From contig JADFZZ010000032.1 in assembly GCA_015232315.1 (NCBI GenBank), positions 796-32,795 on the forward strand: a stretch of 32,000 nucleotides of DNA. The letters run 5' to 3'. Shown piece after piece: positions 1,674 to 31,400 of this stretch. Below the pieces are notes generated by a model. That model did not search any database, was not told the DNA's origin, and saw nothing but the letters and a program-made list of their open reading frames with translations. Made by a program: the position numbers and the translations under genes. Origin of the DNA: SAR324 cluster bacterium. GTDB lineage: Bacteria > SAR324 > NAC60-12. Every line of letters begins with the position of its first letter. The stretch's first letter is position 1.

Positions 1674-3293
1674 TCATCCTCCTTGTCCGGTGATCAATCC
1701 GAGTACCGATTGTGGTACCTGATTGGCTTGTGCCAACATGGCTGTGCTGGATGAAAGCAGAATTTGATTGCCAGTCAATTGTGACATTTGCTCTGCCATG
1801 TCCGCGTCTCTGATGGTTGATTCCGCCTGTGTCAAATTTTCCTCAGCAACTTTTAAACTGTTGAGGTTGTTTTCCAGTGCGTTTTTCTGGAACGATCCAA
1901 AAACACCCCGAATTTTTGTGATTTCATCTACCGCCGCATCGACCATGTTGATGGTATCTCGTGCTCCCTGGGGGGTGGTCACATCAATATCAGACAGACT
2001 GGTGAAGCGACTTTCATTCGGAATCCCGCGAGCCATTTCTTTGGTTCGGGTATCGACCATCGACAATTTTGCCTGTTGTCCTTCCTGAGGGCCAATCTGA
2101 AAGGAAATGGAACCCTGCGAAACATGGACATAACCTTCGCTTTTAGGATTGCTGGGACTGCCAACCAGTTCATCATTGGTTTCTTCGACATAGCTGACAC
2201 CCACTTCAAAGCCATTTTCATCAAACACCGGAACTTCTTTCAAACCCAGTTCCCTGTCATATTGAATGGTCAGTCCCTGAGCTTTGGTGCCCTCAACGGC
2301 GGTTAGAAACTGTCCGTCGCCCAGTGCGATTTCACCACCTATGGTTCCTTCAATATCCTTACCGGGTTCGGCAAACATCGCAATGTTTTCTTTTTCAGAG
2401 AGAATGCCCGCGACCGAACTCGTGACAGACAATGTTGGTTCATCACCAAATTCACGATGACGCACCACCATCATACCATTAGGGTCTGTAAAAACATCAA
2501 CCTTCAAACCTGATTCTTCCACCTTTTTACGCAACTGGGTCAAAACAATGGTCCGAATATTTTGTGACGCCTCTTCTGAGGGAAATCGTTGCGGATCCTG
2601 CCGGGTGTTTTCCACAATTTTATCAATTTCCGCCTTGATTTCACCCCGCGAGGTATCAAGAACCGCTGTTTTGTTCCCTTCATTGATAATCAGATTGATT
2701 CCTTGCCCAATATTTTCTGCTGTGAGTGGCACAGTTCCAGTGGCTTTGGCCCTGGTAGCAACTTGCAAAATATCCACTTCATAGCCATTTTCAGGAGAAG
2801 CCTTGGTGTCAGTGGTCGCATTGACAAAACGAAGTCCGGGTCCAACGGTCACCCCACGGGCACCATTACTGCCATCAAGCAATTTCTTGTCACCAAAAAT
2901 GGTATTGTTGGCAATTCGGTCAATGGAACTGAGTAAATGTTCAATCTCACTTTGATCCGCTTCCACCATTGGTTTATCATTGACAGCTTCGTTGGCCGCA
3001 TGCACGGCTAATTGTCTGATGTTGATCAGCATGGAGCTGATTTCATTCAGAGAACCTTCAGCGGTCTGCACCATTGAAATTGAGAATTCAGCATTGTCCA
3101 GAGATTGTTGCATCCCGACAATCTGACCCCGGAGCCGTTCAGACGCAATCAGTGTGGCAGGTCCATCCGCGGCTTTGTTAATACTTTGTCCAGTCGTGAG
3201 TTTTTCAATATTGTTACCCACCTTGGTGAACGCATCATTGGCATGTCGCAATGAGTTAAGTGACGCGACATTATGTTTAATACTCATTCCCAT
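1674..3293 (-). CDS. fliC: Flagellin (539 aa)
   Basis: The conserved N-terminus MGMSIKHNVASLNSL...GQSINKAADGPATLIASERLRGQIVGMQQSLDNAEFSISMVQTAEGSLNEISSMLINIRQLAVHAAN and C-terminus LTQAESTIRDADMAEQMSQLTGNQILLSSSTAMLAQANQVPQSVLGL are classic flagellin D0/D1 segments. I moved the start from the track's 3359 to ATG 3293, which has AAAGGAG upstream. The 3359 start sits inside the -10 box of the sigma28 promoter. Confidence 0.93.
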   Translation of the reverse strand: MGMSIKHNVASLNSLRHANDAFTKVGNNIEKLTTGQSINKAADGPATLIASERLRGQIVGMQQSLDNAEFSISMVQTAEGSLNEISSMLINIRQLAVHAANEAVNDKPMVEADQSEIEHLLSSIDRIANNTIFGDKKLLDGSNGARGVTVGPGLRFVNATTDTKASPENGYEVDILQVATRAKATGTVPLTAENIGQGINLIINEGNKTAVLDTSRGEIKAEIDKIVENTRQDPQRFPSEEASQNIRTIVLTQLRKKVEESGLKVDVFTDPNGMMVVRHREFGDEPTLSVTSSVAGILSEKENIAMFAEPGKDIEGTIGGEIALGDGQFLTAVEGTKAQGLTIQYDRELGLKEVPVFDENGFEVGVSYVEETNDELVGSPSNPKSEGYVHVSQGSISFQIGPQEGQQAKLSMVDTRTKEMARGIPNESRFTSLSDIDVTTPQGARDTINMVDAAVDEITKIRGVFGSFQKNALENNLNSLKVAEENLTQAESTIRDADMAEQMSQLTGNQILLSSSTAMLAQANQVPQSVLGLITGQGG

Positions 3294-3355
3294 AACAGAC
3301 TCCTTTTGTAAATTGAGGTTAATGAGCAACCCGATCAATTTTATTCTTGAGTCTA

Positions 3356-3382
3356 TCATCGGCAGGATTCAAAAAAACTTGA
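3356..3382 (-). promoter_or_regulatory. sigma28 (FliA)-type promoter of the flagellin gene
   Basis: The minus strand reads TCAAGTTT-N11-GCCGATGA, against the consensus TAAAGTTT-N11-GCCGATAA (14/16 matches, exact spacing). It lies about 60 nt upstream of the flagellin ATG at 3293. Confidence 0.72.
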
Positions 3383-12313: not shown

Positions 12314-12346
12314 TAATATTAAAAACATAAACATATGGAGGTTGAT

Positions 12347-12775: not shown

Positions 12776-12816
12776 TAAATAATTATAATCACTGAACCAA
12801 TTGATCAGGAGGTCAT

Positions 12817-13224
12817 ATGAGTATCGAAAATAAAGATCTGAATAAAACAGAGCAGAATGTCACCAAAAAGGAATCTGGTGAGGAAAAAACTGTCGCAGGT
12901 CGATTTTATAGTCCACCGACAGATATCGTTGAAACCGATAAGTCGCTGATTGTGAATATGGACATGCCGGGAGTCTTGAAGGAAAATCTTGCTATCCGTC
13001 TGGAAAACCAGGTGCTGGAAGTGGAGGGACACATTGATTTCAGCCCGTATCAGGGATTGAATCCGATTTATACGGAATACAATGTTGGTCATTACACCCG
13101 CAAATTCACTGTATCCAGTTCGATTAATACGGATAAAATTGAAGCATCTCTCAATGATGGCGTTCTGACATTGACTTTGCCCAAGGCGGAAAAAGCACAG
13201 CCAAGACAGATTCAGATCAGTTGA
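12817..13224 (+). CDS. Small heat-shock protein, Hsp20 family (copy 2)
   Basis: PPTDIVETDKSLIVNMDMPGVLKENLAIRLENQVLEVEG...FTRKFTVSSSINTDKIEASLNDGVLTLTLPKAE. AGGAGG RBS. Confidence 0.92.
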   Translation: MSIENKDLNKTEQNVTKKESGEEKTVAGRFYSPPTDIVETDKSLIVNMDMPGVLKENLAIRLENQVLEVEGHIDFSPYQGLNPIYTEYNVGHYTRKFTVSSSINTDKIEASLNDGVLTLTLPKAEKAQPRQIQIS

Positions 13225-13282
13225 CCATTGATAAGCCCTGTGCCTTGGAGCATGGGGCCTTCAGGAGAACAGGAGGATCTAT

Positions 13283-13474
13283 ATGAGAAAACAGCACGAG
13301 GAAAAGCAATTGACACATGAGGAAATTCAGCAGGCCATGCAAAATTTTCTCGCAAAAGGAAAATCCATTAAAATTCTGGCCCCACAGGAAATATACCAAC
13401 ATGATTATGTCGGTGGATACAACTGGGGACCTTATGAATCAATGGATTCTCTTGATTTTAATACGTTGTCATAA
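13283..13474 (+). CDS. Small hypothetical protein (63 aa) embedded in the hsp20 operon
   Basis: Strong RBS (ACAGGAGGATCTAT-ATG). It sits in its own intergenic slot between hsp20 copies 2 and 3. I recognise no family. Confidence 0.45.
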   Translation: MRKQHEEKQLTHEEIQQAMQNFLAKGKSIKILAPQEIYQHDYVGGYNWGPYESMDSLDFNTLS

Positions 13475-13533
13475 CAAAGGTTTCGCCTAATATTTCGAAG
13501 TATTATTCTTTACTTTTTATGCATGGAGGTCAT

Positions 13534-14055
13534 ATGTCATGGAAAGATTTGATCACATGGAATCAAAAAAAAGATGGATATAATAATCCTGTCAAAGTTG
13601 ACACTGCGATGGATCAACACCCGATGGTGATGTTTCATCGTGAAATGGACCGGCTATTTCAGGATTTTTTCAAGGATTTCTGGTCTCCCTCCACTTTCTG
13701 GGGCCGAGAGGGCGGCAGCATGTTTTCACCGAAACTGAATGTCAGTGAGGATGAAAAACAGATTGATGTGACTCTTGAAATTCCGGGGATGGACGAAAAG
13801 GACATTCGAATTTCCCTGAAGGATGACATTCTGTCCATCAAGGGAACGAAAAATCAGGAAAAAGAAGATAAGCAAAAAGAGTATCACCATATTGAGCGTT
13901 CCTATGGTTCGTTTCAACGATCCATTCAGTTGCCTTGTGAAGTACAGGCTGACAAAGTGCAGGCTTCCTTTAAAAAGGGCGTGTTGTCTGTGACGCTTCC
14001 CAAAGTTGAGAATGCACAATCCAGAGTACGAATCATCCCTGTTCAGGGCAACTGA
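13534..14055 (+). CDS. Small heat-shock protein, Hsp20 family (copy 3)
   Basis: PKLNVSEDEKQIDVTLEIPGMDEKDIRISLKDDILSIKGTK...FQRSIQLPCEVQADKVQASFKKGVLSVTLPKVE. Start at ATG 13534, with GGAGG 4 nt upstream. Confidence 0.92.
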   Translation: MSWKDLITWNQKKDGYNNPVKVDTAMDQHPMVMFHREMDRLFQDFFKDFWSPSTFWGREGGSMFSPKLNVSEDEKQIDVTLEIPGMDEKDIRISLKDDILSIKGTKNQEKEDKQKEYHHIERSYGSFQRSIQLPCEVQADKVQASFKKGVLSVTLPKVENAQSRVRIIPVQGN

Positions 14056-14061
14056 CACTAC

Positions 14062-14088
14062 GGTGGAGGCAAAACCACGGCCTCCACC
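14062..14088 (+). terminator. GC-rich hairpin after the hsp20 operon (terminator candidate without a clear U-tract)
   Basis: GGTGGAGGC-aaaaccacg-GCCTCCACC is a perfect 9-bp stem 7 nt after the hsp20 stop. It is followed by CTTCTC rather than a T-run. Confidence 0.4.
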
Positions 14089-14155
14089 CTTCTCGCCCCC
14101 CTCTTCACCCACAAATTCAAAAAAATTCCTAAAAAATTTCATCAACCTTTCTGAA

Positions 14156-14171
14156 TGGATTATTCTTTGCA
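14156..14171 (+). promoter_or_regulatory. Candidate sigma54 (-24/-12) promoter for the stator/FliG-like operon
   Basis: TGGATTATTCTTTGCA has GG and TTGCA at exactly the spacing of TGGCACG-N4-TTGCA. Only TGG of the -24 box is conserved. It lies 63 nt upstream of ATG 14234. Confidence 0.3.
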
Positions 14172-14233
14172 AGAACAAAAATCAGAATTCTGCTGACTTC
14201 AGATTTAATAATTGTCTTCAAAGAAAAGGTCGG

Positions 14234-15211
14234 ATGAAACGGTTACTCATTACATTGATGTTATTATCATGCTGCTGGCTGACAGCCATGGCGGAAGAAA
14301 CAGAAAAATCCAGTATTTTCTGGGAGGATCGGGAGATTGGTCAACTGGAAAATATGACGCCGGAATTGCTGGCCGCTGTCAAGCGCATGCATAACCGGAT
14401 TCCCTCGGTCGCAATTTCGACCACCACCATCGATGAAAATCTGAGTCCCAAATTAAGAAGGGTTCTGGTTTCCCGATTGTATGAAATATTGACCACGGAT
14501 GTGGCCTTGAAAATCGGAAAATGCGATGAATGCGGGCAGATACGCAGTGAGCTTTCCGGAAGTTTTCTCAAAATCAGTCGCGGCATCGCGGAAGATGCCT
14601 ACCGACGTTCCAAAGCACGTGAACTGAATGTCGCAGGATTTCTGGACATTTCTGTTTTCATGAGCGAACGGCAACTTTCTGTCACCTTCACCGCTTATGA
14701 TGCCCAGGATGGAAAAATTGCGTTTTCGGAGATCATCACCGGTGATCCGGGTGGACGAACAGAATATACCAATATCTATCTGGGACGATTCAACATTCCA
14801 ATTGCCATTGATGGCACATCCATTGATCATTCAGCCTATATTCTTGGAATGGAACTTTCCAAGCGCATATCGGAATCATGGTTGTTTGCAGGAAATGTGG
14901 CACTTCTGACAGACAATAACAGCAAGTTGACCACCAAATATCCTGACAGTATTTCAGGATTGATGATTGACGGCACTGCCATGTATGAGATGGTTCAGGC
15001 TCTTGGCGGTCGTGCGACAATCGCGGGTGTATTGGGCATGGGGCAATTATTGGCTCCCGCCTTGACGTCACCGTTTTATGCTAAAGTCGGAACAAAAATC
15101 GCGGTAGGTGAGAAACTCACCATTAATCTGCATTATATGTCATTCATCCCTGCCTTGACGACTCCTGAAACAACTGGTGCGACGTATATGGCTTTAGGAT
15201 GGCAGTGGTAA
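14234..15211 (+). CDS. Secreted protein, probable outer-membrane component (periplasmic N-domain + Gly-rich beta C-domain)
   Basis: Start moved to ATG 14234, giving the signal peptide MKRLLITLMLLSCCWLTAMA|EE. The N-domain pattern (VAISTTTIDENLSPKLRRVLVSRLYEIL...NVAGFLDISVFMSERQLSVTFTAYDAQDGKIAFSE) recalls LpoB/FlgO/CsgG-type periplasmic scaffold domains. The C-terminus is Gly-rich with alternating strands and ends ...ALGWQW (aromatic terminus). Confidence 0.6.
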   Translation: MKRLLITLMLLSCCWLTAMAEETEKSSIFWEDREIGQLENMTPELLAAVKRMHNRIPSVAISTTTIDENLSPKLRRVLVSRLYEILTTDVALKIGKCDECGQIRSELSGSFLKISRGIAEDAYRRSKARELNVAGFLDISVFMSERQLSVTFTAYDAQDGKIAFSEIITGDPGGRTEYTNIYLGRFNIPIAIDGTSIDHSAYILGMELSKRISESWLFAGNVALLTDNNSKLTTKYPDSISGLMIDGTAMYEMVQALGGRATIAGVLGMGQLLAPALTSPFYAKVGTKIAVGEKLTINLHYMSFIPALTTPETTGATYMALGWQW

Positions 15212-15252
15212 TCAAACACGGATGTTAATTCATAGATTCCAGGGAAGGTAGT

Positions 15253-16578
15253 ATGCGTCAATTTCGTAAATATGCGGCATGGCTGTTATTGACAGGAGGT
15301 CTCGCAGGATGTTCCTCCTCCGCTGAAGAGGTGGAAAGTGCCCCCAAAGTATCCAGACAAACCATTTATAATCAGTTCATTGATGGTGGAAAAAGCTCAA
15401 TCAGCGTTCTGGAGGAAACCATTGGTGGTAAAAAGCAGATCCGGATTGTGCTGAAAAAAGAGGGCGTTGATTCCAGCATCACACACCCTATCGACAATCC
15501 AAATTTCGTGATCGCAGTCCCACTGCATGATCCTACCAGTGCCAGAGTCGGTATTCAGACCATTGATTTTGAAAATGAAAAACGACGTTTGATTGAAGAA
15601 TTACTGCTGAGGTATATTCCACGTGATCGTTTCAATGTTTCCATTAAACTGTTTTGGGATGAAAAACGACTGGAAGAACTCCAACTCAAGGGGGTGCCAT
15701 TTCAAGAATCAATGGGAAGCACACAACCCGTCCCAACAGCATCAACCAAAGCGCCCGATAAATTGAATTATGAACTGGAACAGGCCGTGATTCGGCAGGA
15801 AACCAGGATTATGCTGGACAACACACTGCCAGCATATCAGGAAAAATTTGTCCGACTGCTACTGCCTTCCCAAACTTTTTTTGTCAAATCACGCGGAGAC
15901 ACGGCCACCGTGGAGCGTGTGATTTTCCCCAAGGCATCACCCGAAAGTATTGCGCCTGAGGAAGAACGACTGATCCGTGAAAAAGTACAGAAAATGATTC
16001 AGGAATATCTGAGTCAGGATGATTTTGTGGTCAATGTCCGGCTCAGTATGAAAGGTGGACAAAACATTCAGAGCATCACTGGACAGGGCGATCAGATTTC
16101 TGTGGCCTCCATGTCCACTGCAACGGATCAGGTGAGTGACCGCATGAATATCAATATCAATGTTCTGCTCAATGATCTGACCTCTCCGGATACCGATGAG
16201 TTTCTCCGCAACACGATTCCCTATGCCATTCACATGGACATGGCGGATGGCGACCAGTTGACCATCACCCGCAAACGGTTTCCGGAAAAAGATTATGGTC
16301 AGATTTCGCCACAACAGGTTGCGCAACTGGAAGAATACAAACGGGAAATTCTTACCGCTTTTGAATCAGGGAATTATGCAGGTGGCCTGGATCTGGTTAA
16401 AAAGGCCATGAAGATCAGTGTAAAACGGGACGACCGCCTGAGTTTGCTAAAAATGCAGGGGTCGCTGTATTTTCTGCTTCAGGACAAACAGCGTGCTCGC
16501 GAAACATGGGAGCATTTGATCAAACTTGATCCGGAAAACGAAGAAGCAAAACAAATGCTTATGAATTTGGTGAAATGA
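15253..16578 (+). CDS. Lipoprotein with two ring-module-like repeats and a C-terminal TPR region
   Basis: Lipobox LLTGGLAG|C (Cys20). Internal modules are RRLIEELLLRYIPRDRFNVSIKL and EERLIREKVQKMIQEYLSQDDFVVNVRL...MNININVLLNDLTSPDTDEFLRNTIPYAIHMDMADGDQLTITRKRF. TPR-like C-terminus (...LKMQGSLYFLLQDKQRARETWEHLIKLDPENEEAKQML). Confidence 0.8.
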   Translation: MRQFRKYAAWLLLTGGLAGCSSSAEEVESAPKVSRQTIYNQFIDGGKSSISVLEETIGGKKQIRIVLKKEGVDSSITHPIDNPNFVIAVPLHDPTSARVGIQTIDFENEKRRLIEELLLRYIPRDRFNVSIKLFWDEKRLEELQLKGVPFQESMGSTQPVPTASTKAPDKLNYELEQAVIRQETRIMLDNTLPAYQEKFVRLLLPSQTFFVKSRGDTATVERVIFPKASPESIAPEEERLIREKVQKMIQEYLSQDDFVVNVRLSMKGGQNIQSITGQGDQISVASMSTATDQVSDRMNININVLLNDLTSPDTDEFLRNTIPYAIHMDMADGDQLTITRKRFPEKDYGQISPQQVAQLEEYKREILTAFESGNYAGGLDLVKKAMKISVKRDDRLSLLKMQGSLYFLLQDKQRARETWEHLIKLDPENEEAKQMLMNLVK

Positions 16579-17855
16579 CCATGAGACTGAAACGATTTGG
16601 ACTGACATTGTTATGTTTGGGACTGACCGGAATGTTTTTCGGAACATTTTACGCGGCAGAACCGGAATCCTCTGCTGTAACCGCAGAAATGCCTAGCAGA
16701 CCTTCCATTTTGCCTGATTCCGCTATGGATATTCCGGCGGAAATGCCAGTTGTGCCAGAAGCACCCGCGACGACTGCGGTGCCTGTTACATCAACCGCGC
16801 CCTCAAAGGCCGCGGACTCTACTGTTGTGCCCCCTGCGCCCGTAAAAGCAGGCAATGCTTCTGCTCCAACGATGCCAGTGCAGGAACAGCCAAGACGGCC
16901 CGAACCACGAAACACCAACGAAATTATTTCCGCGCCCTTTGAACAATTGAAAAAACTGTATGGCAAACCTGAGGGGACAACCCTGGAACAACCAGCAGAA
17001 GTGGACCAGAAACCAAAACAACCTGAAGTTGTTGAAACCAAAACGAAGTCACCGATTGAAGAAATGGATTTGCCTTCGCTTTCAGAGCAACAGGAAACGG
17101 AACGGAATCTTGAGTTCAAACTGGAAACAGCCCTGAAAGAATTATTGCTGGACAAATATGTTCAGGTCAAAGTGATTGTCCATTATCTCGTCAATACTGT
17201 TCCAATCACTGAAAGCAACAAGCAAATATCACAAATGCGGCTTCCGGGATTTAAAAATCAGGTGTGGGTGCCGATTGATCAGAAAAAAGTAACAGGCCTG
17301 GTGCATCGGTTGACACGTTACAACAGTATTTTTGTGGTGGTCAATCAGCCGGTATCACCGTTTGATCTGGAAGTCCTGCGACAAAAACTGAATGCAAAAA
17401 TCGCTGAAATTGATCTGGAAACCAATGATTTTCTTAAAGTCGCTTATGTTCCACTGGCAGAAATGCCAGGAACTGAAAAGCCAATGGCATCCCAACCGGA
17501 AACTCAGTCAGAGGCCACTGATCAGGTTGAAAAAATGCCTGAACCTGAAATAACGCCAGAACCGCCCAAACTTGTTTCAGCCAATGAACAACGCGATGTC
17601 GAAGTAAAATCAGCCAAGCAATTGCTCGAAGCACGCACCGCGTTTTTCAGGAATGACCTGAAAGAAGCGTTGGATAAAATCAATAAAGCCATTGAAATGA
17701 ATCCTGACTCCGCACAGGGCTATGCCATGCTGGGGTCGGTGTATTATCGCCTGAAATGGTATGGACAGGCAAAAAAACACTGGAAAAAATCTCTGGAACT
17801 GGAGCCTGACAATCCTTTGATTGCTCAGTATCTCGAACGATTGGAGAACGAATGA
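16575..17855 (+). CDS. Secreted or anchored Pro/Ala-rich protein with a ring-module-like domain and C-terminal TPR
   Basis: N-terminal hydrophobic signal (LTLLCLGLTGMFFGTFYA|AEP) and a ~140-aa P/A/T/E-rich linker. The module is LEFKLETALKELLLDKYVQVKVIV...SIFVVVNQPVSPFDLEVLRQKLNAKIAEIDLETNDFLKVAYVP. The TPR is AQGYAMLGSVYYRLKWYGQAKKHWKKSLELEPDNP. The ATG at 16575 overlaps the upstream TGA; an alternative ATG is at 16581. Confidence 0.8.
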   Translation: MTMRLKRFGLTLLCLGLTGMFFGTFYAAEPESSAVTAEMPSRPSILPDSAMDIPAEMPVVPEAPATTAVPVTSTAPSKAADSTVVPPAPVKAGNASAPTMPVQEQPRRPEPRNTNEIISAPFEQLKKLYGKPEGTTLEQPAEVDQKPKQPEVVETKTKSPIEEMDLPSLSEQQETERNLEFKLETALKELLLDKYVQVKVIVHYLVNTVPITESNKQISQMRLPGFKNQVWVPIDQKKVTGLVHRLTRYNSIFVVVNQPVSPFDLEVLRQKLNAKIAEIDLETNDFLKVAYVPLAEMPGTEKPMASQPETQSEATDQVEKMPEPEITPEPPKLVSANEQRDVEVKSAKQLLEARTAFFRNDLKEALDKINKAIEMNPDSAQGYAMLGSVYYRLKWYGQAKKHWKKSLELEPDNPLIAQYLERLENE

Positions 17856-19744
17856 TGGCACGCTATCTTAAAACAGGTTGGATCTGTCTGTTGCTGAGCC
17901 TATGCGTTTCAGGGCATGTATGGGCTGAAGAACGCATCACATCCCTGCCTGCGAAACAGTATGAAATTGAATCGGCCATTCACAACAGCCTGCGGCATTA
18001 TATGGAACCACAGGACTATGTGATCAAAGTCTGGCTGAAGGGAAAGAAAAAAACCATTGAGACCTTCCCTTTCAAAAATTTCAGTTCATCAACGGATGAA
18101 GTCCTGCCCGGATTCGGTACACCGCCCTCGCCTGTAACCAACGAAGACCCTGTCGCCGTTGAAGGCGAAACTTACTGGGTTGTGGAACAGATGCGTGTGG
18201 ATTTGATTCTTTACAAAGAAATATCTCCATCGCTGGCCACCTATATCACAGAGATCATTCCCGTCTTAAGCGGAATGAATTCTCAACGTGGCGATGTATT
18301 CAATTTTATGCCGATCAAACCCAAACCACTTGAAAGCGACAGTCCCAGACCGTTGAATCCTGATGGCAGTGCCATGGATGGTGCGTCGTCATCTTCAGAT
18401 CAGGCTGTCGCCACACCTGAACCGGAACCAACCCTTGAACAAATGCTGATTCCGCAAACACCAATGGAATGGCTACAGGCAGGGGTGAGTTTGCTGTTAT
18501 TGCTCCTGATCCTCTTTATTTTCTGGAGAATCATTAAATTACAGAAACAGCAGAAAGCCGCGCAGGCCGCCCAGGAAAAATCCGCTGTGGACATCCGGGA
18601 TCTGGTGCCTTCTCCGCAAAACGCCATCGCGACGATTCAACAGGCTCGTCAAGATCTGGTGCGCCGGCAGGATGAGCATGTTCAGGAAATATTGCTGGTT
18701 GAAGAAAACAACCGGCTTTTGCAGGAAATCATCAAACAACTGGTAGGACGTGAAGACTGGAAACAGCATCTGATTGAGGAAATGACACGGGATAAACAGT
18801 CCACCGAAGCCTTCACACGGTTGCTGGCCATGATGGGACCCCAGACGGCCCGCCGGCTGTTTTCCGAACAGTTGGGACATGAGGCCTATCTGGATCTGGA
18901 ACAACTGGCCCGGGATCTTTCGTTCACACCACAAGAGGCCAATTCGATTCTGAAGGATATCTGGACATTTTTATTCACTAAAAAGCTGACCTTGCCTGAA
19001 AAAGTAGCGACGGATCCTTTTGGTTATCTGTTGAAATTGTCTACCGGGCAAATCGCGTTTTTGCTCAAGGATGAACCGGTCAAAATCAAGGCACTGGTTG
19101 TCAGTCGCCTGAACAGTGAACAGGCAACAGAAGTGATCGGACATTTCCCGAAAGATGAACGGACTCAGGTCATGCTGCATCTGGGCAAGATGGAGGAACT
19201 TCCTCTCGAACTGGTGTCGCAGGTCGCTTATAATCTGGCTGACAAGGTACGAAGCCTGCCTGACAGCAATACTGTCGCGGTCAATGGAGTGAATCTCGTG
19301 ATTGATGTCCTGGGTGAGGTCGAACATGGAGTTCGGCAGGACATCATCAACGGCTTGCGGATTTCTGATCAGCGTTTGAGTGATATGGTGGAAAGCCGGT
19401 GTTTCATTTTTGAATCCATTCCGTTTGTACCCAAAGAAGTTTTGATGGAAGTGGTCCGTCGTTTACCGCTGGATGATGTCATTATTGCGATCTCCGGTGC
19501 GACAAAAGAAATCAAGGAAGCCGTCATCCTGTGTTTTCCTGAGCAAAACCGTCAGGCGATTGTATCTGCCTTGAAAGCAAAAACACCATCCCCGGATGAC
19601 ATTCGGGAAAAACGCAGGGTGTTTGCCCAATCCATGCGTGGCATGGCAGAAAACAACAGGGTCGATTTGAAAGAAATCAACACCGCGTGGGCCCAACAGC
19701 ACGATGCTGTTCCAGCCCTGAATTTTGAACAGCAGGAGTCATAG
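17852..19744 (+). CDS. Bitopic membrane protein: periplasmic FliF/YscJ-like module, one TM helix, cytoplasmic FliG-like (middle + C-terminal) domain
   Basis: Signal peptide ...CVSGHVWA|EE and TM helix SLLLLLLILFIFW (aa ~206-226). The C-terminal ~230 aa align by eye to FliG: LLKDEPVKIKALVVSRLNSEQATEVIGHFPKDERTQVMLHLGKM; NGVNLVIDVLG; CFIFESI (cf. MFVFEDI); AISGATKEIKEAV (cf. ALKGAS.E.KEK). GGAG RBS, and the ATG overlaps the upstream stop (ATGA). Confidence 0.85.
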   Translation: MMARYLKTGWICLLLSLCVSGHVWAEERITSLPAKQYEIESAIHNSLRHYMEPQDYVIKVWLKGKKKTIETFPFKNFSSSTDEVLPGFGTPPSPVTNEDPVAVEGETYWVVEQMRVDLILYKEISPSLATYITEIIPVLSGMNSQRGDVFNFMPIKPKPLESDSPRPLNPDGSAMDGASSSSDQAVATPEPEPTLEQMLIPQTPMEWLQAGVSLLLLLLILFIFWRIIKLQKQQKAAQAAQEKSAVDIRDLVPSPQNAIATIQQARQDLVRRQDEHVQEILLVEENNRLLQEIIKQLVGREDWKQHLIEEMTRDKQSTEAFTRLLAMMGPQTARRLFSEQLGHEAYLDLEQLARDLSFTPQEANSILKDIWTFLFTKKLTLPEKVATDPFGYLLKLSTGQIAFLLKDEPVKIKALVVSRLNSEQATEVIGHFPKDERTQVMLHLGKMEELPLELVSQVAYNLADKVRSLPDSNTVAVNGVNLVIDVLGEVEHGVRQDIINGLRISDQRLSDMVESRCFIFESIPFVPKEVLMEVVRRLPLDDVIIAISGATKEIKEAVILCFPEQNRQAIVSALKAKTPSPDDIREKRRVFAQSMRGMAENNRVDLKEINTAWAQQHDAVPALNFEQQES

Positions 19745-19765
19745 AATTTTTTATAGGTCTGAGTT

Positions 19766-20725
19766 ATGAAAGACACCATTGGCACACTTCTGGGCTTTTT
19801 AATTGGTATTTCCCTCGTCTTGTTTGGAATCACCTGGCCTGATCATTTGTCCAACTATTACATGTATCAGTTGCGCGAATATGAAATGGCCACAAAGCAG
19901 ATGAAAAAAGACGGGGTGCCTCGCAACCAGATTCAGGAACTTGAACAGAAATTCTCAGAGTTTCAGGATTCATGGATCGGAACCATGTCCCGCTTTATTG
20001 ATCTCAAATCGTTTTTGATTGTGATGGGCGGCGCCTATTCCGCGATGATGGTCGCGTTTCCGTTTGACAAGGCGATGGGGGCTTTTGTGTTCATTGTCAG
20101 GGTGTTTGCGTCATCCGTGAAGAAGGAAGAATTTCTGGATGTGTATCACACCGTTCTCAAACTGGCTGAAAAACGAGTGAACAATGCCATCCTCACCGAT
20201 GAGGATATCAATGCTATTCATTCAGTGGATCTAAAACGTTGGGTTCAGGATTTCATTGTGGTCGATATCGTTGAAGAAAACATGATTGAGGAAATTGTTC
20301 GATCGGAAATTGAAATGTACAATTATCGTTCTTTTGAAGAAATTGATGTCCTCAATTTTCTTGGTGCCGCGTCTCCCGCTTTTGGAATGCTCGGTACCGT
20401 GGTTGGTCTGATTCTGATGCTGGGAAATACGGGTGGTGATGTAGCCGGTGTGATGGGGGGAATGTCCATTGCGTTGATCACGACATTGTATGGAGTGTTT
20501 CTGGCCCAGATCATGTTTTTGCCGATAGCATCCAAACGCTATCAAATGAAAGAGTCGCACATCATGTTGCTGGAAATGATCAGAGAAGGTCTGCTCTATC
20601 TCAAACGGCGTGAAATTCCTGATACGATCTCCCAGGATTTAATCATTTATCTGCCTCTCAAAATGCGTCAGAAAATCACTGAAGAAAAAATGGCGGCGAT
20701 GCGTGAGGGTAATTTGGGATTGTGA
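19766..20725 (+). CDS. motA: MotA/PomA-family stator channel protein with an enlarged first periplasmic loop
   Basis: SPAFGMLGTVVGLILML and GGMSIALITTLYGVFLAQIMFLPIASK match MotA TM3/TM4, including both conserved prolines. There is a ~50-aa insertion between TM1 and TM2. Confidence 0.9.
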   Translation: MKDTIGTLLGFLIGISLVLFGITWPDHLSNYYMYQLREYEMATKQMKKDGVPRNQIQELEQKFSEFQDSWIGTMSRFIDLKSFLIVMGGAYSAMMVAFPFDKAMGAFVFIVRVFASSVKKEEFLDVYHTVLKLAEKRVNNAILTDEDINAIHSVDLKRWVQDFIVVDIVEENMIEEIVRSEIEMYNYRSFEEIDVLNFLGAASPAFGMLGTVVGLILMLGNTGGDVAGVMGGMSIALITTLYGVFLAQIMFLPIASKRYQMKESHIMLLEMIREGLLYLKRREIPDTISQDLIIYLPLKMRQKITEEKMAAMREGNLGL

Positions 20726-20728
20726 TCT

Positions 20729-21376
20729 ATGGCCAATCGAAAAGACGCATCAACCGAAACCCCTGCATGGGTGGTTTCTTTTGCCGATCTGATGAGCTTG
20801 CTGTTCAGCTTTTTTGTGCTGCTCACCACACTTTCCACTCAGCCGAAAAATTGCGAGGGCATCCGTGAATATATGGAAAACAACAAGGCGTTTTTTAAAA
20901 ACTATGAACTTCGATCCACTAAACTGAGTTGCATTGTTTCCTTACCTCAAGATTATCTGTTCAAATCAGGACAAGGCAAAATCCAGCCTTCGGCCTTCAA
21001 AGCGCTCACTCCATTTTTTGAGAAAATCCGCGATCTGCCGGAACATCGTGAAGATCTGTTGATTGTGGAAGGTCACACCGACAATGTGCCCATCCATACC
21101 CGTGAATTTCCCAGCAATTGGGAACTCAGCTCGGCCAGAGCCACCAATATTTCCGTATTCATGATGGAAAAACTCAAATTTGCCCGCGAACGACTGTCCG
21201 TTTCGGCCTATGCGGATTCGCGTCCCAAAACCCCCTATGTAGACACTTACGGCAAACCATTAACCGGCAAGGACCTCCAGAATGCTCGACAAACCAACCG
21301 TCGAGTTGAAATCATTCTGACAACACCCCCCAAATCCCTTGAGGAAACCACCATGCTGTTTGATGGTCGGGAATAA
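20729..21376 (+). CDS. motB: MotB-family stator protein (OmpA-like peptidoglycan-binding C-domain)
   Basis: PAWVVSFADLMSLLFSFFVLL carries the conserved channel Asp. OmpA_C motifs are VEGHTDNVPI, SNWELSSARATNISVFM, YADSRP and NRRVEI. It starts 3 nt after the motA-like stop. Confidence 0.9.
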   Translation: MANRKDASTETPAWVVSFADLMSLLFSFFVLLTTLSTQPKNCEGIREYMENNKAFFKNYELRSTKLSCIVSLPQDYLFKSGQGKIQPSAFKALTPFFEKIRDLPEHREDLLIVEGHTDNVPIHTREFPSNWELSSARATNISVFMMEKLKFARERLSVSAYADSRPKTPYVDTYGKPLTGKDLQNARQTNRRVEIILTTPPKSLEETTMLFDGRE

Positions 21377-21842
21377 GGCCCTCATCTGACCTCATCAATA
21401 CTGTGTGAATTATTTTTTCACGATAATGAGGCCATATTATGCAATATTAACTCATGTGATGCAATAAACTTTTTTAAATAAAAAATATGAGTTTTCTCAT
21501 CACAACGCCGCTAACGCAGAGGGCCAATGGCTGACAGTTCGCACTCTGAATCATTTCGGATTGAGGAAACAAAAAACTTTGATTTCAGCCGGATATATTG
21601 TCAGTTACCACAAAGTGCTGTCCATTGAAAACAAGCCTGGCAGGCGTAAAGAGCATTCAAAAAAAACTCCTTGACGAAGGGCTAGTGAATACGCTACATG
21701 CATATCTAATATCTAACAAAGGCCAGGGGAGGATCTTTGTTTACAACGATTTCCCAAATCGGGGGGGATTAACCAGCCCCCTGTAAACATTGGCAATTGT
21801 GAGATATTGTTTATTTTTTTAACTAATCTCTTTGGAGGAAGT

Positions 21843-22427
21843 ATGAAAATGTTCAAACAATGGAAAAAAAGATGGGCTGGATTCAGTCTTGTAGAAATTG
21901 TAATCGCCATCGCGGTCATCGGGATCATGTCTGCGGCGTCAGTGCCCCTGATCAAAAGCACACTCGATAAATCAAAAAATTCCCGCGCAAAAAGCGAACT
22001 GGAAGAAATACGAAATGCGTCTGTGTCATTTTATGGCGATACCTTTCAGGTTCCCGGTAATATTGGATGTACCAAGACAGCCACAACCCATCTGCTGACA
22101 GATACAGCAGCGGCAAAAATTGACATGTCCAAAGCAGGGACTGTGACATCTGATGATCTGGATGCGCATTTCAATACGAACTGTACAGGTGCCAATGCCG
22201 GTAAATATACAGACAATAGCTTGGGTGGCGCCTGGAGAGGCCCATACATGGAAGCTGATCGCTATGATCCATGGCAAAAATCTTATGTATTGGTCACAAA
22301 TACATTTGGAACTACTGATACCGCATCCGGTTATGCTCTTTCCGGTGGAACCGATGAGCAGGTCAACACTGCCAAGGCTACAGCCGCAAGTACCAGTGAT
22401 GTATATATCAAAGTCAGTCTGAAATAA
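21843..22427 (+). CDS. Type II secretion pseudopilin / type IV pilin-like protein (GspG-like), orphan
   Basis: Prepilin signal KRWAG|FSLVEIVIAIAVIGIM (Gly-1, Phe+1, Glu+5). GspG-like motifs are WRGPYM and DPWQKSY. Start at ATG 21843, with GGAGG 4 nt upstream. Confidence 0.85.
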   Translation: MKMFKQWKKRWAGFSLVEIVIAIAVIGIMSAASVPLIKSTLDKSKNSRAKSELEEIRNASVSFYGDTFQVPGNIGCTKTATTHLLTDTAAAKIDMSKAGTVTSDDLDAHFNTNCTGANAGKYTDNSLGGAWRGPYMEADRYDPWQKSYVLVTNTFGTTDTASGYALSGGTDEQVNTAKATAASTSDVYIKVSLK

Positions 22428-22438: not shown

Positions 22439-22459
22439 AAGGCGGGTCACTCCCGCCTT
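22439..22459 (+). terminator. Rho-independent terminator after the pseudopilin gene
   Basis: AAGGCGGG-tcact-CCCGCCTT followed by TCTTTT. It overlaps the stop codon of the convergent minus-strand gene. Confidence 0.7.
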
Positions 22460-25341
22460 TCTTTTAGCTGACGATTCAGCTCTTCAAAGTGATTTCCCAT
22501 CCAACTCAACAGTTTCTTCTCATGCGGTGGAAAGCGTGTGTCAGACATGATGAATGTCTGGAAAATTTGAAGATACATGGCTTTTTCTCCGGCTTTCAGC
22601 ATTTCGACCTCCATTGCGCTCAGAAATACAGGATTGTATTTGGGCGGTGATGAATTTTGCAGGATGTTCCTGATTAAATCTTTCAGGTGATCCAACTGGT
22701 CCGTATACAGAAAATCCAGAAACAGAAATTCATCCTGAAACTTTTTTGGGGGAATATCCTTTCGGACTAGCTCACGATACAATGTGACAGCTTCCAGTTT
22801 ATCCCACATTTGTGCCATATTTCTGGGGTGCGTGATTTTTTTGAATTGATGATCAATCTCATTCCAGTTGGAATTTTTGCGGGCAATTCGCAGGGAATCT
22901 GTCAGCCATTCCAATTTTTCTGAAGGAATTGGCGGAGCATTTTTAAAATAATCTGTTTGAGCTCTGGAAAAATTTTCTGGTTCCAGAATTTCCTGATAAA
23001 ATGAAATAGCATTTATAAATGACCAGAACAAATCCACTTCCTGACTCAGAAACAACGCTTTTTCCGCACTGTTATCAACCAGAGGGAAAAAATATGAATT
23101 GGGATTCACATCTTCCAGAATAGGGCGTAGACTCTGGGTTGAAACAATAAAATTCTGAGGGCCGAACAAACGGGTATCCCCCTTGAATTTCAAAAATTCC
23201 TGAGCAATCTCTGGTTCTCGTTCAAAACGATCAATGGCATCCAGATTGAAATCAGTGTTGCCTGCAACAATCACATAATTTGCTTCACCAGCCAGATATA
23301 TTTTTGCGTAGGGAAAACGATTATCCAGAGCCTTGATAATGGTCAGCATGAGTTCTGTGTTGAAGGAATAACCATGGACCCATTGGACCAGTAAGCCTTC
23401 TGGTTTTAGAAATCGTTGGATGTGCTCGTAGAATTCTTCGGTGAACAGGCTCGAAACACCACTGACCCAAGGATTTGATGGTTCTGAAATGATAAGGTCA
23501 TATTGTCTGTTGGCCTGATAGAAATAGGTTTTGGCATCATCAAAAATAGGACGGATTTTGGGACTGTCATACACATTTCGATTATAAGGATAGAAATTTT
23601 TTGCCAATTCATACATCTGTTCTTCAATTTCGATCAAATCCAGATGTTTTAACAAGGGGTCGGATAGCAGATAGTGTGCAGACATACCACTGCCCAACCC
23701 GATCATTGCGGCGTCATAAGGCTGATTCATCGCAGCCATCGGAACAAACGCGGCAGCGGCCTGAGTATATTCATCTTCAGATATGGTGCCTTTCAATCCG
23801 ATACTCGCATCAACCTTGCCATTTGTTGCGATCATTGACCTGAATGGATTGAACGTGAATGAGATGGTTGCTGTTTTTCCATCCTTGACGAGTATTTGAT
23901 GAAAATCTCCGGCATTCAGCTTGCCACGAAAAACACCTATTGTGGTAAGATTCGGGTCAAGTTTGATATGCAATACAGGAATAAAGACCAGCACAGAAAC
24001 GCAGAGTGTCGCAATGAACTTCCATCGGGAAAGCTTATAGGCACCCAGCAGCACAAGTCCCAGACCGATATCAATCAAAGCTCCTGAGGCAATGGTGTAT
24101 TTGATCTGAAAATTCGGCAATAGCAATAACCCTCCCAGAGAGGCGCCAAGTATGGCTCCTATCGTATTCCAGCCATATACAAATCCAGTGTATTTTTCAT
24201 TGCGTGTAAAATTGATCAGATAATAAGTGATCAATGGCAGTGTCATTCCCGCAAAGAAACTGGTGGGTGCCATCATCAATAGGCAGATCAGATATTTGAA
24301 TATGGAATAGACTGGATAGGCGAGTTCTGTTTTTCTGAATACAGAATGTGAGTCGCTGATCGCGTAAAAAAACGGCTCGTAAAAATAGATGCTGCTCAAC
24401 GCAAACGCCCCCATGAGAATCTGGATGAAAGCCAACGTATGCGCGATGTTTCGTGAAGAGTCAATCAGCTTGCGGGCATAACCGCCTCCCAGGGCCAACC
24501 CCAGGATGAACGCGGAAATCATGATATCAAACGAATGGGTTGAAGATCCCAGCAACAACCCCAGAAGCCTGATCCAGCCAACTTCGTAAATGAAGGATGA
24601 AAACCCTGTCAGACCGCTGATCAACAACCATAGTCCAATGGTGCGCTGATCCGGAAGTTCATGTGAAATTTCCTTGTGAGATTCCGCACCGGAAAAAGAT
24701 TCTGTTATTTTGGGGCCAATGATTTTATCAGCTTTTTTGGCGATGAAATAAAACATCAATGCAATCAGTACATTGGAAGAACCAGCAATGGCGAGAGTTC
24801 CTATGGTTCCCATTTCCGGAATGAGCAGATAGGAAGTCGCCAGAATTCCAATGGCGGCACCCAGAGAATTGGTGAAATATAACACAGGCAGTGAAGAACG
24901 TCCTTCATCTCTGCTGACACGAATGACACCCACTGTGATGAATGGAAAAGTCATTCCAAGCAGGATCGCGGTCGGGAGCGTCATCAGCATGGAGATCAGC
25001 ACCTTGGTCAGATTGGCAAACCAGAAAGACGAAAAATATACATTGGCGGCTTCATAAAACCATTGGGTACAGACTAGATAAATTCCGTGGAAGACAAAAC
25101 CTGAAACGCCCACCAGCAACTCAATGGCAGCATAGACATAAAATGGATTCCGGATATTCCGACAGAGTCGTCCTGCCAGAAACGACCCGATGCCGAGTCC
25201 ACCCATAAAAATGGAAAGTGTCAGGATCTGACCATAAAACGAATGTCCGAGAAATAATTTAAGATACCGGGACCACAGTGATTCATAAATAAGACCAACA
25301 AATCCTGAAACAACGAACAGACCATAAATCAGGCGAACCAT
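22447..25341 (-). CDS. Fused polytopic membrane domain + spermidine-synthase-like (aminopropyl/methyltransferase fold) protein with a long C-terminal extension
   Basis: The N-terminal ~450 aa have many hydrophobic helices. The central region MIGLGSGMSAHYLL...LDLIEIE...DLIISEPSNPWVSGVSSLFTEEFY...LKPEGLLVQW is a spermidine synthase family signature. The track start at 25347 is a TTG; ATG 25341 is preferred. Confidence 0.85.
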   Translation of the reverse strand: MVRLIYGLFVVSGFVGLIYESLWSRYLKLFLGHSFYGQILTLSIFMGGLGIGSFLAGRLCRNIRNPFYVYAAIELLVGVSGFVFHGIYLVCTQWFYEAANVYFSSFWFANLTKVLISMLMTLPTAILLGMTFPFITVGVIRVSRDEGRSSLPVLYFTNSLGAAIGILATSYLLIPEMGTIGTLAIAGSSNVLIALMFYFIAKKADKIIGPKITESFSGAESHKEISHELPDQRTIGLWLLISGLTGFSSFIYEVGWIRLLGLLLGSSTHSFDIMISAFILGLALGGGYARKLIDSSRNIAHTLAFIQILMGAFALSSIYFYEPFFYAISDSHSVFRKTELAYPVYSIFKYLICLLMMAPTSFFAGMTLPLITYYLINFTRNEKYTGFVYGWNTIGAILGASLGGLLLLPNFQIKYTIASGALIDIGLGLVLLGAYKLSRWKFIATLCVSVLVFIPVLHIKLDPNLTTIGVFRGKLNAGDFHQILVKDGKTATISFTFNPFRSMIATNGKVDASIGLKGTISEDEYTQAAAAFVPMAAMNQPYDAAMIGLGSGMSAHYLLSDPLLKHLDLIEIEEQMYELAKNFYPYNRNVYDSPKIRPIFDDAKTYFYQANRQYDLIISEPSNPWVSGVSSLFTEEFYEHIQRFLKPEGLLVQWVHGYSFNTELMLTIIKALDNRFPYAKIYLAGEANYVIVAGNTDFNLDAIDRFEREPEIAQEFLKFKGDTRLFGPQNFIVSTQSLRPILEDVNPNSYFFPLVDNSAEKALFLSQEVDLFWSFINAISFYQEILEPENFSRAQTDYFKNAPPIPSEKLEWLTDSLRIARKNSNWNEIDHQFKKITHPRNMAQMWDKLEAVTLYRELVRKDIPPKKFQDEFLFLDFLYTDQLDHLKDLIRNILQNSSPPKYNPVFLSAMEVEMLKAGEKAMYLQIFQTFIMSDTRFPPHEKKLLSWMGNHFEELNRQLKERRE

Positions 25342-28333: not shown

Positions 28334-28349
28334 CCATCATAGGAATAAT

Positions 28350-29051: not shown

Positions 29052-29065
29052 TCCTGAGCTGCTTA

Positions 29066-30760: not shown

Positions 30761-30786
30761 TTTTTTTAAGGGGGGAGAAACTATAA

Positions 30787-31395: not shown

Positions 31396-31400
31396 GTTTT

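Follow-up and report, generated by a model that had tools for sequence, protein, structure and literature searches.

A natural FliF RBM3–transmembrane–FliG fusion protein encoded with MotAB-like stator subunits in SAR324 bacteria, and its possible role in a ring outside the flagellum

The window considered here is a stretch of 32,000 nucleotides (nt) from a SAR324 cluster bacterium (assembly GCA_015232315.1, contig JADFZZ010000032.1, positions 796 to 32,795 of the forward strand). Its gene at 17852..19744 encodes a protein that is best explained as a natural fusion of the C-terminal half of FliF, namely ring-building motif 3 (RBM3) and the second transmembrane (TM) helix, to a complete FliG-like rotor protein with N-like, M and C domains. 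The original prediction, made from the DNA letters, had proposed a natural single chain composed of a FliF-like module, a TM helix and a FliG-like part; homology now supports all of these parts. The gene belongs to a row of six same-strand genes (14234..21376), joined by 4-nt overlaps or by gaps of 3–41 nt, and the row ends with genes for a MotA-like and a MotB-like stator subunit (Table 1). We consider the chances about even that the cluster encodes a stand-alone ring driven by MotAB, a module of rotor and stator with flagellar ancestry that would operate independently of all other flagellar parts.

The Fusion Protein

The periplasmic module of the fusion protein is a homologue of FliF RBM3, the S-ring/collar domain located just before the second TM helix of FliF. 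An alignment of this region from 34 family members (A2) was compared as a profile with the sequences of PDB chains. The profile matched Vibrio FliF 8z5s with an E-value of 4.7e-4, including the RGD..nV...F motif that ends RBM3, and the 144-residue FliF chain 9yh6 over its whole length with an E-value of 7.8e-4; a weaker match was obtained with SpoIIIAG (E = 0.065). Two motifs of the module, LPGF (amino acids, aa, 85–88) and RGD (146–148), are invariant in 13 orthologues. The AlphaFold2 model of the module (pLDDT 87.7) reveals the alpha-beta-(loop)-beta-alpha-beta topology of ring-building motifs. When this model was compared with PDB by Foldseek, the 17 best matches turned out to be, without exception, RBM3/S-ring structures of FliF from Vibrio and Salmonella (E from 6e-6 to 4e-4, probability 1.0, template modelling score ~0.5), with 8z4d being the best of them, and the next matches were unrelated OsmC folds with E > 0.01. 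The Pfam family PF08345 (Flagellar M-ring protein C-terminal) is matched by 16 of the 34 family members, at best with 6e-7, and the query fusion protein alone does not match it. RBM1 and RBM2 (the SctJ-homology region, PF01514) have no Pfam match in the fusion, and they are excluded because the mature periplasmic part of about 180 aa contains one domain and leaves no room for them. Hence, of the FliF-like module proposed originally for aa ~35–155, the likeness to FliF stands and the comparison with RBM1/2 of the YscJ/PrgK type does not: profile, Foldseek and PF08345 all point to RBM3 instead. The domain order is co-linear with the FliF C-terminus followed by FliG, and at its end the module has the RGD..n(v/f)...F motif found ahead of the second TM helix in FliF.

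The N-terminal segment of the protein seems to be a signal peptide. A25 and E27, at the putative VWA/EE cleavage site, are invariant in the same 13 orthologues; these are 46–54% identical to the fusion protein and can be aligned with it over the full length. The segment could, however, serve as an uncleaved N-terminal anchor, and of the cleavable signal peptide that had been proposed for aa 1–25 it is the signal-like character that is retained. As had also been anticipated, a P/S-rich linker leads from the periplasmic module to the single strong TM helix (Kyte–Doolittle peak of 2.61 at aa 210–228). The RIIKLQKQQK stretch directly after the helix fits the positive-inside rule. Pfam matches to GspL_C and ArlX at the TM helix and linker were dismissed, being below cut-off and lying over the TM helix plus a low-complexity helix. 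The topology, with a periplasmic N-domain and a cytoplasmic C-part, is based on hydropathy, the positive-inside rule and domain homology, and every indicator at hand places the FliG part in the cytoplasm. Canonical FliG has neither a signal peptide nor a TM helix. The fusion protein, having a signal-like N-terminus and one TM helix at aa ~206–228, departs from this hallmark of a soluble cytoplasmic FliG.

As regards the Q/E/R-rich coiled coil that had been proposed after the TM helix, the predicted structure has a long helix at aa 272–297, and the stretch 229–270 contains prolines. A conserved segment, EENxRLLQEIIKQLVGRxDW (aa 283–303), precedes the FliG_N-like domain and opens the region of dense conservation among the 13 orthologues (aa 283–610). 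The VGRxDW part resembles the C-terminus of FliF, a likeness that carries no significant score. Compared with the C-terminal peptide of Salmonella FliF, the segment reaches a profile score of only 2.5 bits. In the search for a FliG-binding FliF C-terminal helix upstream of the FliG_N-like domain, no significant score was obtained and no FliF chain of PDB was matched.

By both sequence and model, the cytoplasmic part comprises the M and C domains of FliG plus an N-like domain. Pfam FliG_M (PF14841) is matched at aa 400–471 (2e-14, 54 bits vs. a cut-off of 25) and FliG_C (PF01706) at aa 502–605 (7.5e-14, 52.3 bits vs. 23.3). FliG_N (PF14842) gives 18.5 bits, which is below its cut-off of 25, and is placed on the M region. 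By sequence, the nearest relative with a solved structure is T. maritima FliG (3e-14), in the alignment with which CFIFESI (517–523) stands opposite MFVFEDI, exactly the counterpart proposed originally. A profile of aa 271–630 from 24 family members (A3) matches T. maritima FliG (1lkv) with 1e-45 in an alignment that is gap-free across M and C and reaches the C-terminus. Positions 69–136 of the same profile match weakly the N domain of A. aeolicus FliG (3hjl aa 11–79), further weak matches to the FliG_N structure 5tdy_B were obtained with A3 (6e-4) and with alignment A5 (0.067), and many family relatives carry precomputed PF14842 matches. The AlphaFold2 model of the cytoplasmic part is all-helical (pLDDT 87.9). 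Its 13 best Foldseek matches in PDB are all FliG, full-length FliG structures (3hjl, 8wiw) being aligned over 309–330 columns. The per-domain template modelling scores are 0.90 for M (H. pylori FliG_M, 4fq0_C), 0.86 for C (1qc7_B) and 0.5–0.6 for N.

It had been suggested that assignment of the C-terminal region to MgtE-N only, with no FliG_C match, would speak against a FliG-like identity for the middle and C domains. FliG_M and FliG_C both score above their Pfam cut-offs and FliG structures dominate the fold search, so that the FliG-like identity is upheld. The MgtE-only identity was rejected: PF03448 gives 25.6 bits vs. a cut-off of 25.9 and overlaps FliG_C, and the MgtE structure 8gpv appears at rank 27 with E = 2.5. 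The fliG equivalog TIGR00207 scores 74.1 bits vs. a cut-off of 226.7, and the fusion protein is for this reason regarded as not being an orthologue of the flagellar switch protein.

The Stator and the Partner Proteins

The MotA-like protein matches Pfam MotA_ExbB (PF01618) with 2.7e-21, the MotP and PomA families of NCBIfam with 1e-35 to 1e-30, under their equivalog cut-offs, and flagellar MotA/PomA chains of PDB with 1e-25 to 1e-17. The best score with a named-stator equivalog (MotP, PomA or MotA) is 122 bits vs. a cut-off of 394. P204 and P253 match P173 and P222 of E. coli MotA. The MotB-like protein matches Pfam MotB_plug (PF13677, 2.2e-10) and OmpA (PF00691, 7.3e-13) as well as the NCBIfam MotB family (1.9e-35), and its conserved TM aspartate is D20 in SFADLMSLL. 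With the plug, the Asp and the OmpA domain of MotB and the prolines and the charged pair of MotA in place, the stator looks functional.

The MotA-like protein contains an insertion of about 50 residues between TM1 and TM2 (aa ~25–78; window 19838–19999), which is predicted to be periplasmic. The insertion is common to all SAR324 orthologues (319–322 aa) and is absent from E. coli MotA. The MotA proteins of related clusters in other phyla (263–272 aa) do not have it.

Upstream of the fusion gene, three further genes of the row encode putative envelope proteins, and two of these genes contain three additional RBM3-like copies, which the original prediction had not noted. The lipoprotein harbours two RBM3-like modules at aa ~106–231 and ~238–347 (nt ~15568–15945 and ~15964–16293). 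A hmmsearch with the A2 profile gives a full-protein E-value of 3e-20 (6e-22 in a small set), with domains at 106–231, 238–273 and 298–347, and Pfam places TPR_2, a tetratricopeptide repeat (TPR), at aa 399–429. The secreted protein, whose gene overlaps both neighbouring genes by 4 nt (start and stop codons), has one RBM3-like module with LPGF at aa ~170–304 (nt ~17082–17486; A2 E-value of 1e-3 to 1e-5) and a TPR unit at aa ~342–423 (nt ~17598–17843; TPR_2 3.6e-10). This TPR unit scores 32–40 bits with its counterparts in the fusion clusters of other phyla vs. –4 to 17.6 bits for unrelated TPR controls, and the partner is accordingly specific to the cluster. The first gene of the row probably encodes an outer-membrane beta-barrel. 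A marine orthologue of it matches PF13505 (OMP_b-brl) in its C-terminal half with 1.7e-5 and 25.5 bits, whereby the cut-off of 28.7 is missed; for the protein of the window, Pfam gives no match. Altogether, the locus encodes four RBM3-like modules, one in the inner-membrane fusion, one in the periplasmic protein and two in the probable outer-membrane lipoprotein, in addition to the outer-membrane barrel and a peptidoglycan-anchored ion motor.

Conservation within SAR324 and in Other Phyla

The orthologue alignment A1 was used to scan one genome per GTDB species, with a reach limited to the SAR324 phylum. The scan revealed 27 loci, all of them in SAR324, 'Deltaproteobacteria' or Ca. Lambdaproteobacteria metagenome-assembled genomes (MAGs). 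The product of the window gene itself has a counterpart with 100% identity, annotated as hypothetical, in a SAR324 cluster MAG. Across the phylum, the orthologues have 617–660 aa and 42–52% identity. The order outer-membrane barrel, lipoprotein with two RBM modules, RBM-TPR protein and fusion is kept in every SAR324 locus with enough flank. The motA and motB genes lie directly downstream of the fusion gene in the window, in TL4 (L001/L007) and in L032, and directly upstream of the barrel gene in L023, L024, L026 and L031. Thus, the linkage between the fusion and MotAB survives rearrangement in non-marine SAR324.

In two SAR324 MAGs the fusion ORF (open reading frame) is split into two pieces (L027, 8095–10059; L033, 4856–7612), which could be due to a frameshift, an assembly error or a pseudogene. 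These split ORFs, along with the loss of functional FliG residues (the torque charges and the EHPQR motif, see below), might be taken to indicate that the gene is a decaying duplicate, a non-functional relic of a FliF/FliG duplication. Full-length orthologues throughout the phylum, 35 invariant columns among 16 full-length fusion sequences, strict synteny with three partner genes, hundreds of metagenomic copies and homologues in several phyla effectively refute decay, and we regard it as highly improbable.

The fusion architecture is widespread across phyla, which had not been anticipated. An exhaustive search of 1.84 billion protein representatives yielded 2214 matches at E <= 1e-3. Among the best 150 of these, 93 proteins are at least 540 aa long; for many, the alignment with the query covers aa ~35–610 at 20–25% identity, and nearly all have the same single TM helix, at residue 170–370. 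The members with a name belong to Bacteroidota, Elusimicrobia, Gammaproteobacteria, KSB1 and Calditrichota, all as MAGs, and are annotated in the source as 'FliG C-terminal domain-containing protein' or 'flagellar motor switch protein FliG'. A further protein search with a broad alignment (A6) gave matches confined to a KSB1/Calditrichota subfamily, for many members of which PF08345, FliG_N, FliG_M and FliG_C are precomputed in one chain.

At four of five distant loci (L005, L006, L036 and L037) the fusion, a TPR protein, MotA and MotB are encoded in one string; the fifth, L004, has the fusion and the TPR protein only. The 'Bacteroidota'/KSB1/Calditrichota type, Elusimicrobia and two other lineages share this core of fusion, specific TPR partner and MotAB. 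No genes for FliM, FliN, the export gate, the rod or the hook were detected within ~10 kb in the eight lineages examined. Three of the distant loci also encode a homologous secreted protein of 361–388 aa without a Pfam family (L005, 11820–12953; L006, 11084–12250; L037, 11854–12939). It sits between the fusion and TPR genes, with pairwise E-values of 1e-14 to 1e-28, and is absent from SAR324. In L036, a 2.17-Mb circular contig, a Bat-like set of MoxR AAA+, DUF58, DUF4381 and VWA genes (13496–16573) follows directly after motB.

The Torque Helix

The canonical charged residues of FliG form the interface with the stator. The reference sequences of E. coli FliG and MotA were checked by length (331 and 295 aa) and by key residues, namely K264, R281, D288, D289 and R297 in FliG and R90, E98, P173 and P222 in MotA. 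The register was derived from a MAFFT alignment of E. coli FliG with 12 short FliG-like representatives and 98 long family members. A second register, obtained by aligning T. maritima FliG with the family profile in HMMER without gaps, agrees with it. The torque helix is aligned without gaps, the sole indel being one residue, of the SAR324 type, in the loop just before the R297 column.

In this register, K264 corresponds to S548, R281 to Q565, D288 to S572, D289 to A573 and R297 to S580. The equivalences read by eye in the original prediction (R567, L574/K575 and D582) therefore lie uniformly two positions too far towards the C-terminus by both the profile and MAFFT. The claim that the canonical torque charges are altered turned out to be true in a stronger form: all five are absent in the SAR324 subfamily, the helix of which carries conserved E564, R567, K575 and K/R577 instead. 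The R281 column is R or K in 80 of the 98 long relatives, and the D288 and D289 columns are acidic in 34 and 38 of them, respectively; the loss of torque charges is thus a feature of the SAR324 subfamily. The FliM-binding motif EHPQR is likewise not preserved. At the columns of E125-H126-P127-Q128 and R160 the query has E-P-V-K and H, and across the 98 long relatives the motif is reduced to E125.

The R...D/E pair that had been pointed out in the MotA-like partner is present with the canonical spacing of 8. It is R137...D145 or, by register, V138...E146, within K136-R137 and D145-E146-D147, the register of the pair being uncertain by one residue. As the stator retains its half of the canonical interface in the form of the R137...D145/E146 pair, the proposed partial co-divergence of the rotor-stator interface finds no support in these alignments.

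A Possible Mechanism and Its Alternatives

In favour of a stand-alone MotAB-driven ring are the domain identities and their co-linear order, the functional-looking stator, the compact operon, the linkage of the fusion to MotAB, the core shared across phyla, strong purifying conservation, the lack of flagellar parts nearby and the precedent of engineered fusions that assemble rings. From these data we infer how such a machine might work. The RBM3 domains would oligomerise into an S-ring-like ring at the periplasmic face of the inner membrane, and this ring would hold a matching cytoplasmic FliG-like ring at 1:1, as engineered FliF-FliG fusions do. In the co-transcribed, peptidoglycan-anchored stator, presumably of the MotA5B2 type, ion flow would rotate the MotA ring, which would push the FliG_C-like domain and thereby turn the membrane ring. 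The machine would have no switch, FliM and FliN not being encoded nearby and EHPQR not being kept, and it would likewise be devoid of the type III export gate, rod, hook and filament. The partners of the ring would be the secreted protein and the outer-membrane lipoprotein, with their three RBM3-like modules and the cluster-specific TPR unit, and the probable outer-membrane beta-barrel. Because the switch, export, rod, hook and filament parts are missing and RBM/TPR and outer-membrane partners are found instead, the output would probably be directed not to a propeller but to an envelope assembly that spans the periplasm.

Several observations weigh against this stand-alone ring. In the abundant marine SAR324 clade there is no MotAB within 9 kb of the cluster. 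An orthologous MotAB (MotA of 321–322 aa, 62–64% identity) occurs there on hundreds of contigs, 2.4 kb from a flagellin gene, and in the window, too, a flagellin gene lies upstream of the cluster, at a distance of 11 kb. It may therefore be that the stator serves the flagellum, either exclusively or in addition. SAR324 MotA scores 62–85 bits with the MotA proteins of other fusion clusters and 72–94 bits with flagellar ones, so it appears no closer to the former than to bona fide flagellar MotA. The SAR324 fusion has none of the five torque charges while MotA keeps its own, and the canonical electrostatic rotor-stator interface is not evident in SAR324. Finally, the beta1-beta2 loop of the modelled RBM3 comprises about 35 residues (47–82, pLDDT 64–71), which is too short for a beta-collar of the FliF type.

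The main rival explanation takes up these observations. The fusion, the RBM/TPR proteins and the outer-membrane barrel might be accessories of the flagellar motor, forming extra rings or a scaffold around the canonical SAR324 basal body, similarly to the TPR spokes PflA/PflB, the ARM-like E-ring of FlgY and the FlgP disks of Campylobacterota. Instead of being driven as an independent rotor, the FliG-like domain would in that case serve for docking or organising the MotAB stators of the flagellum. The organism is probably flagellated, given the flagellin gene at 1674..3359, and the orthologous MotAB of marine SAR324 adjoins a flagellin gene. Flagellar-type MotAB keeps the charges suited to a canonical FliG, the matching ones being lost from the fusion, and the SAR324-specific periplasmic insertion of MotA could be a scaffold contact. 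TPR and armadillo (ARM)-like modules are, moreover, established building blocks of periplasmic flagellar scaffolds (PMC11870540). However, the cluster never occurs inside a flagellar gene cluster, either in the eight lineages or at ~20 SAR324 loci, and the compact fusion-TPR-MotA-MotB operons in distant phyla look self-contained. RBM3 and the FliG N, M and C domains with an MFXF-type hinge are what a rotor needs, and known scaffolds differ in this respect; a static FliG-like ring clamping MotA would also hinder the rotation of MotA. On balance, we consider the accessory role rather unlikely, though a serious contender.

Another alternative is a non-rotary energy-transducing adaptor, in which no closed ring would rotate and the FliG-like domain would only couple the protein to the MotAB-type ion motor. 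As in Tol-Pal, TonB or AglRQS-Glt, conformational work would be transmitted by the TM helix and the periplasmic domain to the TPR lipoprotein and the outer-membrane barrel. Its partners would span the envelope, including as they do an inner-membrane protein, a periplasmic protein, an outer-membrane lipoprotein and an outer-membrane barrel, and the loss of the canonical torque-helix charges would suit such a function. Other 5:2 motors, namely ExbBD, TolQR, AglRQS and GldLM, are known to power envelope processes (PMC12505986). The same work indicates that a MotB with plug and OmpA-type domain belongs to torque-bearing flagellar stators and not to the compact Exb/Tol type (PMC12505986). Since RBM3 is a dedicated ring-building fold and the stacking motifs of FliG M/C are retained, we find a purely non-rotary adaptor distinctly improbable.

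A bolder form of the stand-alone reading is put forward tentatively, its chances being in our opinion somewhat below even. According to it, the clusters of several phyla (SAR324, KSB1/Calditrichota, Elusimicrobia and Gammaproteobacteria-like MAGs) would encode a free-standing rotary nanomachine without type III secretion, in which a FliF-RBM3/FliG ring is spun by its own MotAB and coupled to an outer-membrane barrel and to RBM/TPR rings stacked upon one another. If so, the machine would represent either a relative of the flagellar rotor-stator module living today or a branch that split off from it very early, and would mean that neither export apparatus nor rod nor filament is needed for the torque-generating core to exist and to work. 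A stand-alone ring would come close to a new class of machine; a flagellar accessory would still be a new kind of motor ring.

These data bear on the origin of the flagellar motor, in particular on the question of whether the FliF/FliG/MotAB module had an existence that preceded, or was separate from, type III export. An operon conserved over several phyla that contains only the rotor-stator module, joined into one rotor protein and connected to new envelope partners, is a concrete object for addressing this question. The fusion also offers a minimal 1:1 FliF:FliG ring for structural work and, with the rotor charges gone and the stator charges kept, a natural experiment on the FliG-MotA contacts that are required. 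In general, the cluster points to an envelope function in SAR324, which is among the most abundant bacterial lineages of the deep ocean.

Other Features of the Window

Table 1. Coordinates of the features discussed, given as positions in the window
Feature	Coordinates	Strand	Remarks
Probable outer-membrane beta-barrel, 325 aa from Met at 14234	14234..15211	+	Signal peptide; C-terminus ...LGWQW; first cluster gene
Lipoprotein, 441 aa, lipobox LAGC	15253..16578	+	Two RBM3-like modules and C-terminal TPR unit
Secreted RBM3-TPR protein, 426 aa	16575..17855	+	Pro/Ala-rich linker, one RBM3-like module, C-terminal TPR unit
FliF(RBM3)-TM-FliG fusion protein	17852..19744	+	630 aa
Putative signal peptide, aa 1–25	17852..17926	+	...SGHVWA/EE; n/h/c pattern, V at –3, A at –1
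Periplasmic FliF RBM3-like domain, aa 26–160	17927..18331	+	Alpha-beta-(35-aa loop with LPGF)-beta-alpha-beta, ends RGDvFnF
TM helix, aa ~206–228	18467..18535	+	Acidic N-terminal flank, R/K-rich C-terminal flank
FliG_N-like helical domain, aa ~300–380	18749..18991	+	Five helices in AlphaFold2 model
FliG middle domain, aa ~388–485	19013..19306	+	Pfam FliG_M; EHPQ replaced by EPVK (aa 408–411)
FliG C-terminal domain, aa ~502–610	19355..19681	+	Pfam FliG_C; CFIF hinge 517–520; torque helix
Torque helix, aa 564–576	19541..19579	+	Helix in AlphaFold2 model
Flagellar-type MotA/PomA-like stator subunit, 319 aa	19766..20725	+	Pfam MotA_ExbB, NCBIfam MotP/PomA
MotB-like stator subunit, 215 aa	20729..21376	+	Plug, TM, OmpA-type peptidoglycan-binding domain
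Pseudopilin-like gene (N_methyl and T2SSG)	21807..22427	+	Pfam; membership of the system doubtful
Terminator-like hairpin, 8 bp, 6 G-C, then T-run	22439..22459	.	Between convergent pseudopilin and Spermine_synth genes

Downstream of the cluster, the hairpin at 22439 is the only convincing terminator-like one, the regional total of such sites being not above the shuffled expectation. The Spermine_synth gene that follows (window 22447–25347, minus strand) encodes a polytopic membrane protein of 966 aa that contains a spermine/spermidine synthase domain. The pseudopilin and Spermine_synth genes were considered as conserved parts of the system and rejected, as they show no synteny in other SAR324 loci. 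A pilin-like gene with an N-methylation motif also occurs ~3 kb past motB in the unrelated L036 cluster (16593–17039), and a Spermine_synth gene is found in L006 (19732–21071), ~4 kb past the Elusimicrobia fusion-MotAB cluster and ~8 kb from the fusion gene. Further downstream, a gene for a 683-aa TPR protein (window 25596–27647) is missing in the near-identical assembly GCA_015231535.1 (L038), where Spermine_synth adjoins a GNAT gene. At window 28326–31775 there is a possible regulatory module, in which genes for a DUF3334/CheX-like protein, for a protein of 564 aa whose receiver domain is degenerate, for an acyltransferase and for a STAS protein stand in a row.

Directly upstream of the cluster are three tandem HSP20/alpha-crystallin genes (window 12335–14055). 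The 561-aa flagellin gene (1674–3359, minus strand) and minD-minC (3935–5493, minus strand) lie 9–11 kb upstream of the cluster. An ORF at window 5733–7058 combines TerB-like and LexA-type S24 peptidase domains. A related shorter contig was found to have no flagellar genes on it.

Comparison with Known Systems

Full-text literature searches gave no description of an RBM3-TM-FliG fusion family; what turned up were the Chlamydia fusion, engineered fusions and Campylobacter scaffolds. A close comparison is the flagellar motor's core itself, FliF, FliG and MotAB/PomAB. The SAR324 system shares with it RBM3, a TM helix and FliG N-like, M and C domains in the order from FliF C-terminus to FliG, the MFXF-type hinge kept as CFIF, the plug, Asp and OmpA domain of MotB, and the prolines and charged pair of MotA. 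Unlike the flagellar core, the SAR324 fusion is one polypeptide, lacks RBM1, RBM2 and the long beta-collar insertion, and has a putative signal peptide in place of the first TM helix. EHPQR is not present, nor, in the SAR324 subfamily, are the five torque charges, and the score for the fliG equivalog is 74 vs. the 226.7 bits of the cut-off. No FliM/N, export gate, rod, hook or filament is linked to the fusion, the partners being RBM/TPR proteins and an outer-membrane barrel.

Bergeron described the natural FliF-FliG fusion of Chlamydiaceae, the only family from which such a protein has been known (Bergeron 2016, PMC4768692). The chlamydial protein of ~330 aa has both TM helices, an SctJ-like RBM2 with a second RBM and a FliG_M-like region only; it was discussed as an injectisome partner and has no link to MotAB (PMC4768692). 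By that published description, the two fusions are similar in being a single chain with an RBM region of the FliF type, a TM helix and a FliG-like domain, without a complete flagellum, whereas the SAR324 protein has RBM3 alone together with FliG N-like, M and C domains and is encoded in an operon with MotAB.

Engineered FliF-FliG fusions were shown to assemble rings (PMC11481574, PMC6079021). The Salmonella deletion-fusions and Vibrio FliFG (PDB 8z4d/8z4g, PMC11481574) resemble the SAR324 protein in their 1:1 covalent linkage and compatibility with a ring. They are, however, laboratory constructs of full-length FliF and FliG that operate inside a complete flagellum.

The TPR spokes PflA/PflB and the ARM-like E-ring protein FlgY (PMC11870540) similarly combine TPR or ARM-like modules with MotAB stators. 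In contrast to the SAR324 fusion, their ARM-like domains are small and periplasmic, none has the RBM3-TM-FliG arrangement, and all are parts of a canonical flagellum. SpoIIIAG and SctJ-SctD have the same alpha-beta-beta-alpha-beta RBM fold with a beta1-beta2 insertion, the match to SpoIIIAG being weak (E = 0.065), but these static channel scaffolds have no FliG domain and no ion-motor partner.

In a survey on the evolution of MotAB, stators of the flagellar type are distinguished from generic ones, and a fusion context is not mentioned (PMC12505986). When SAR324 MotAB is set against the flagellar-type 'FIT' stators of that survey (PMC12505986), MotA_ExbB, the prolines, the charged pair, the MotB plug, the Asp and the OmpA domain are all present.

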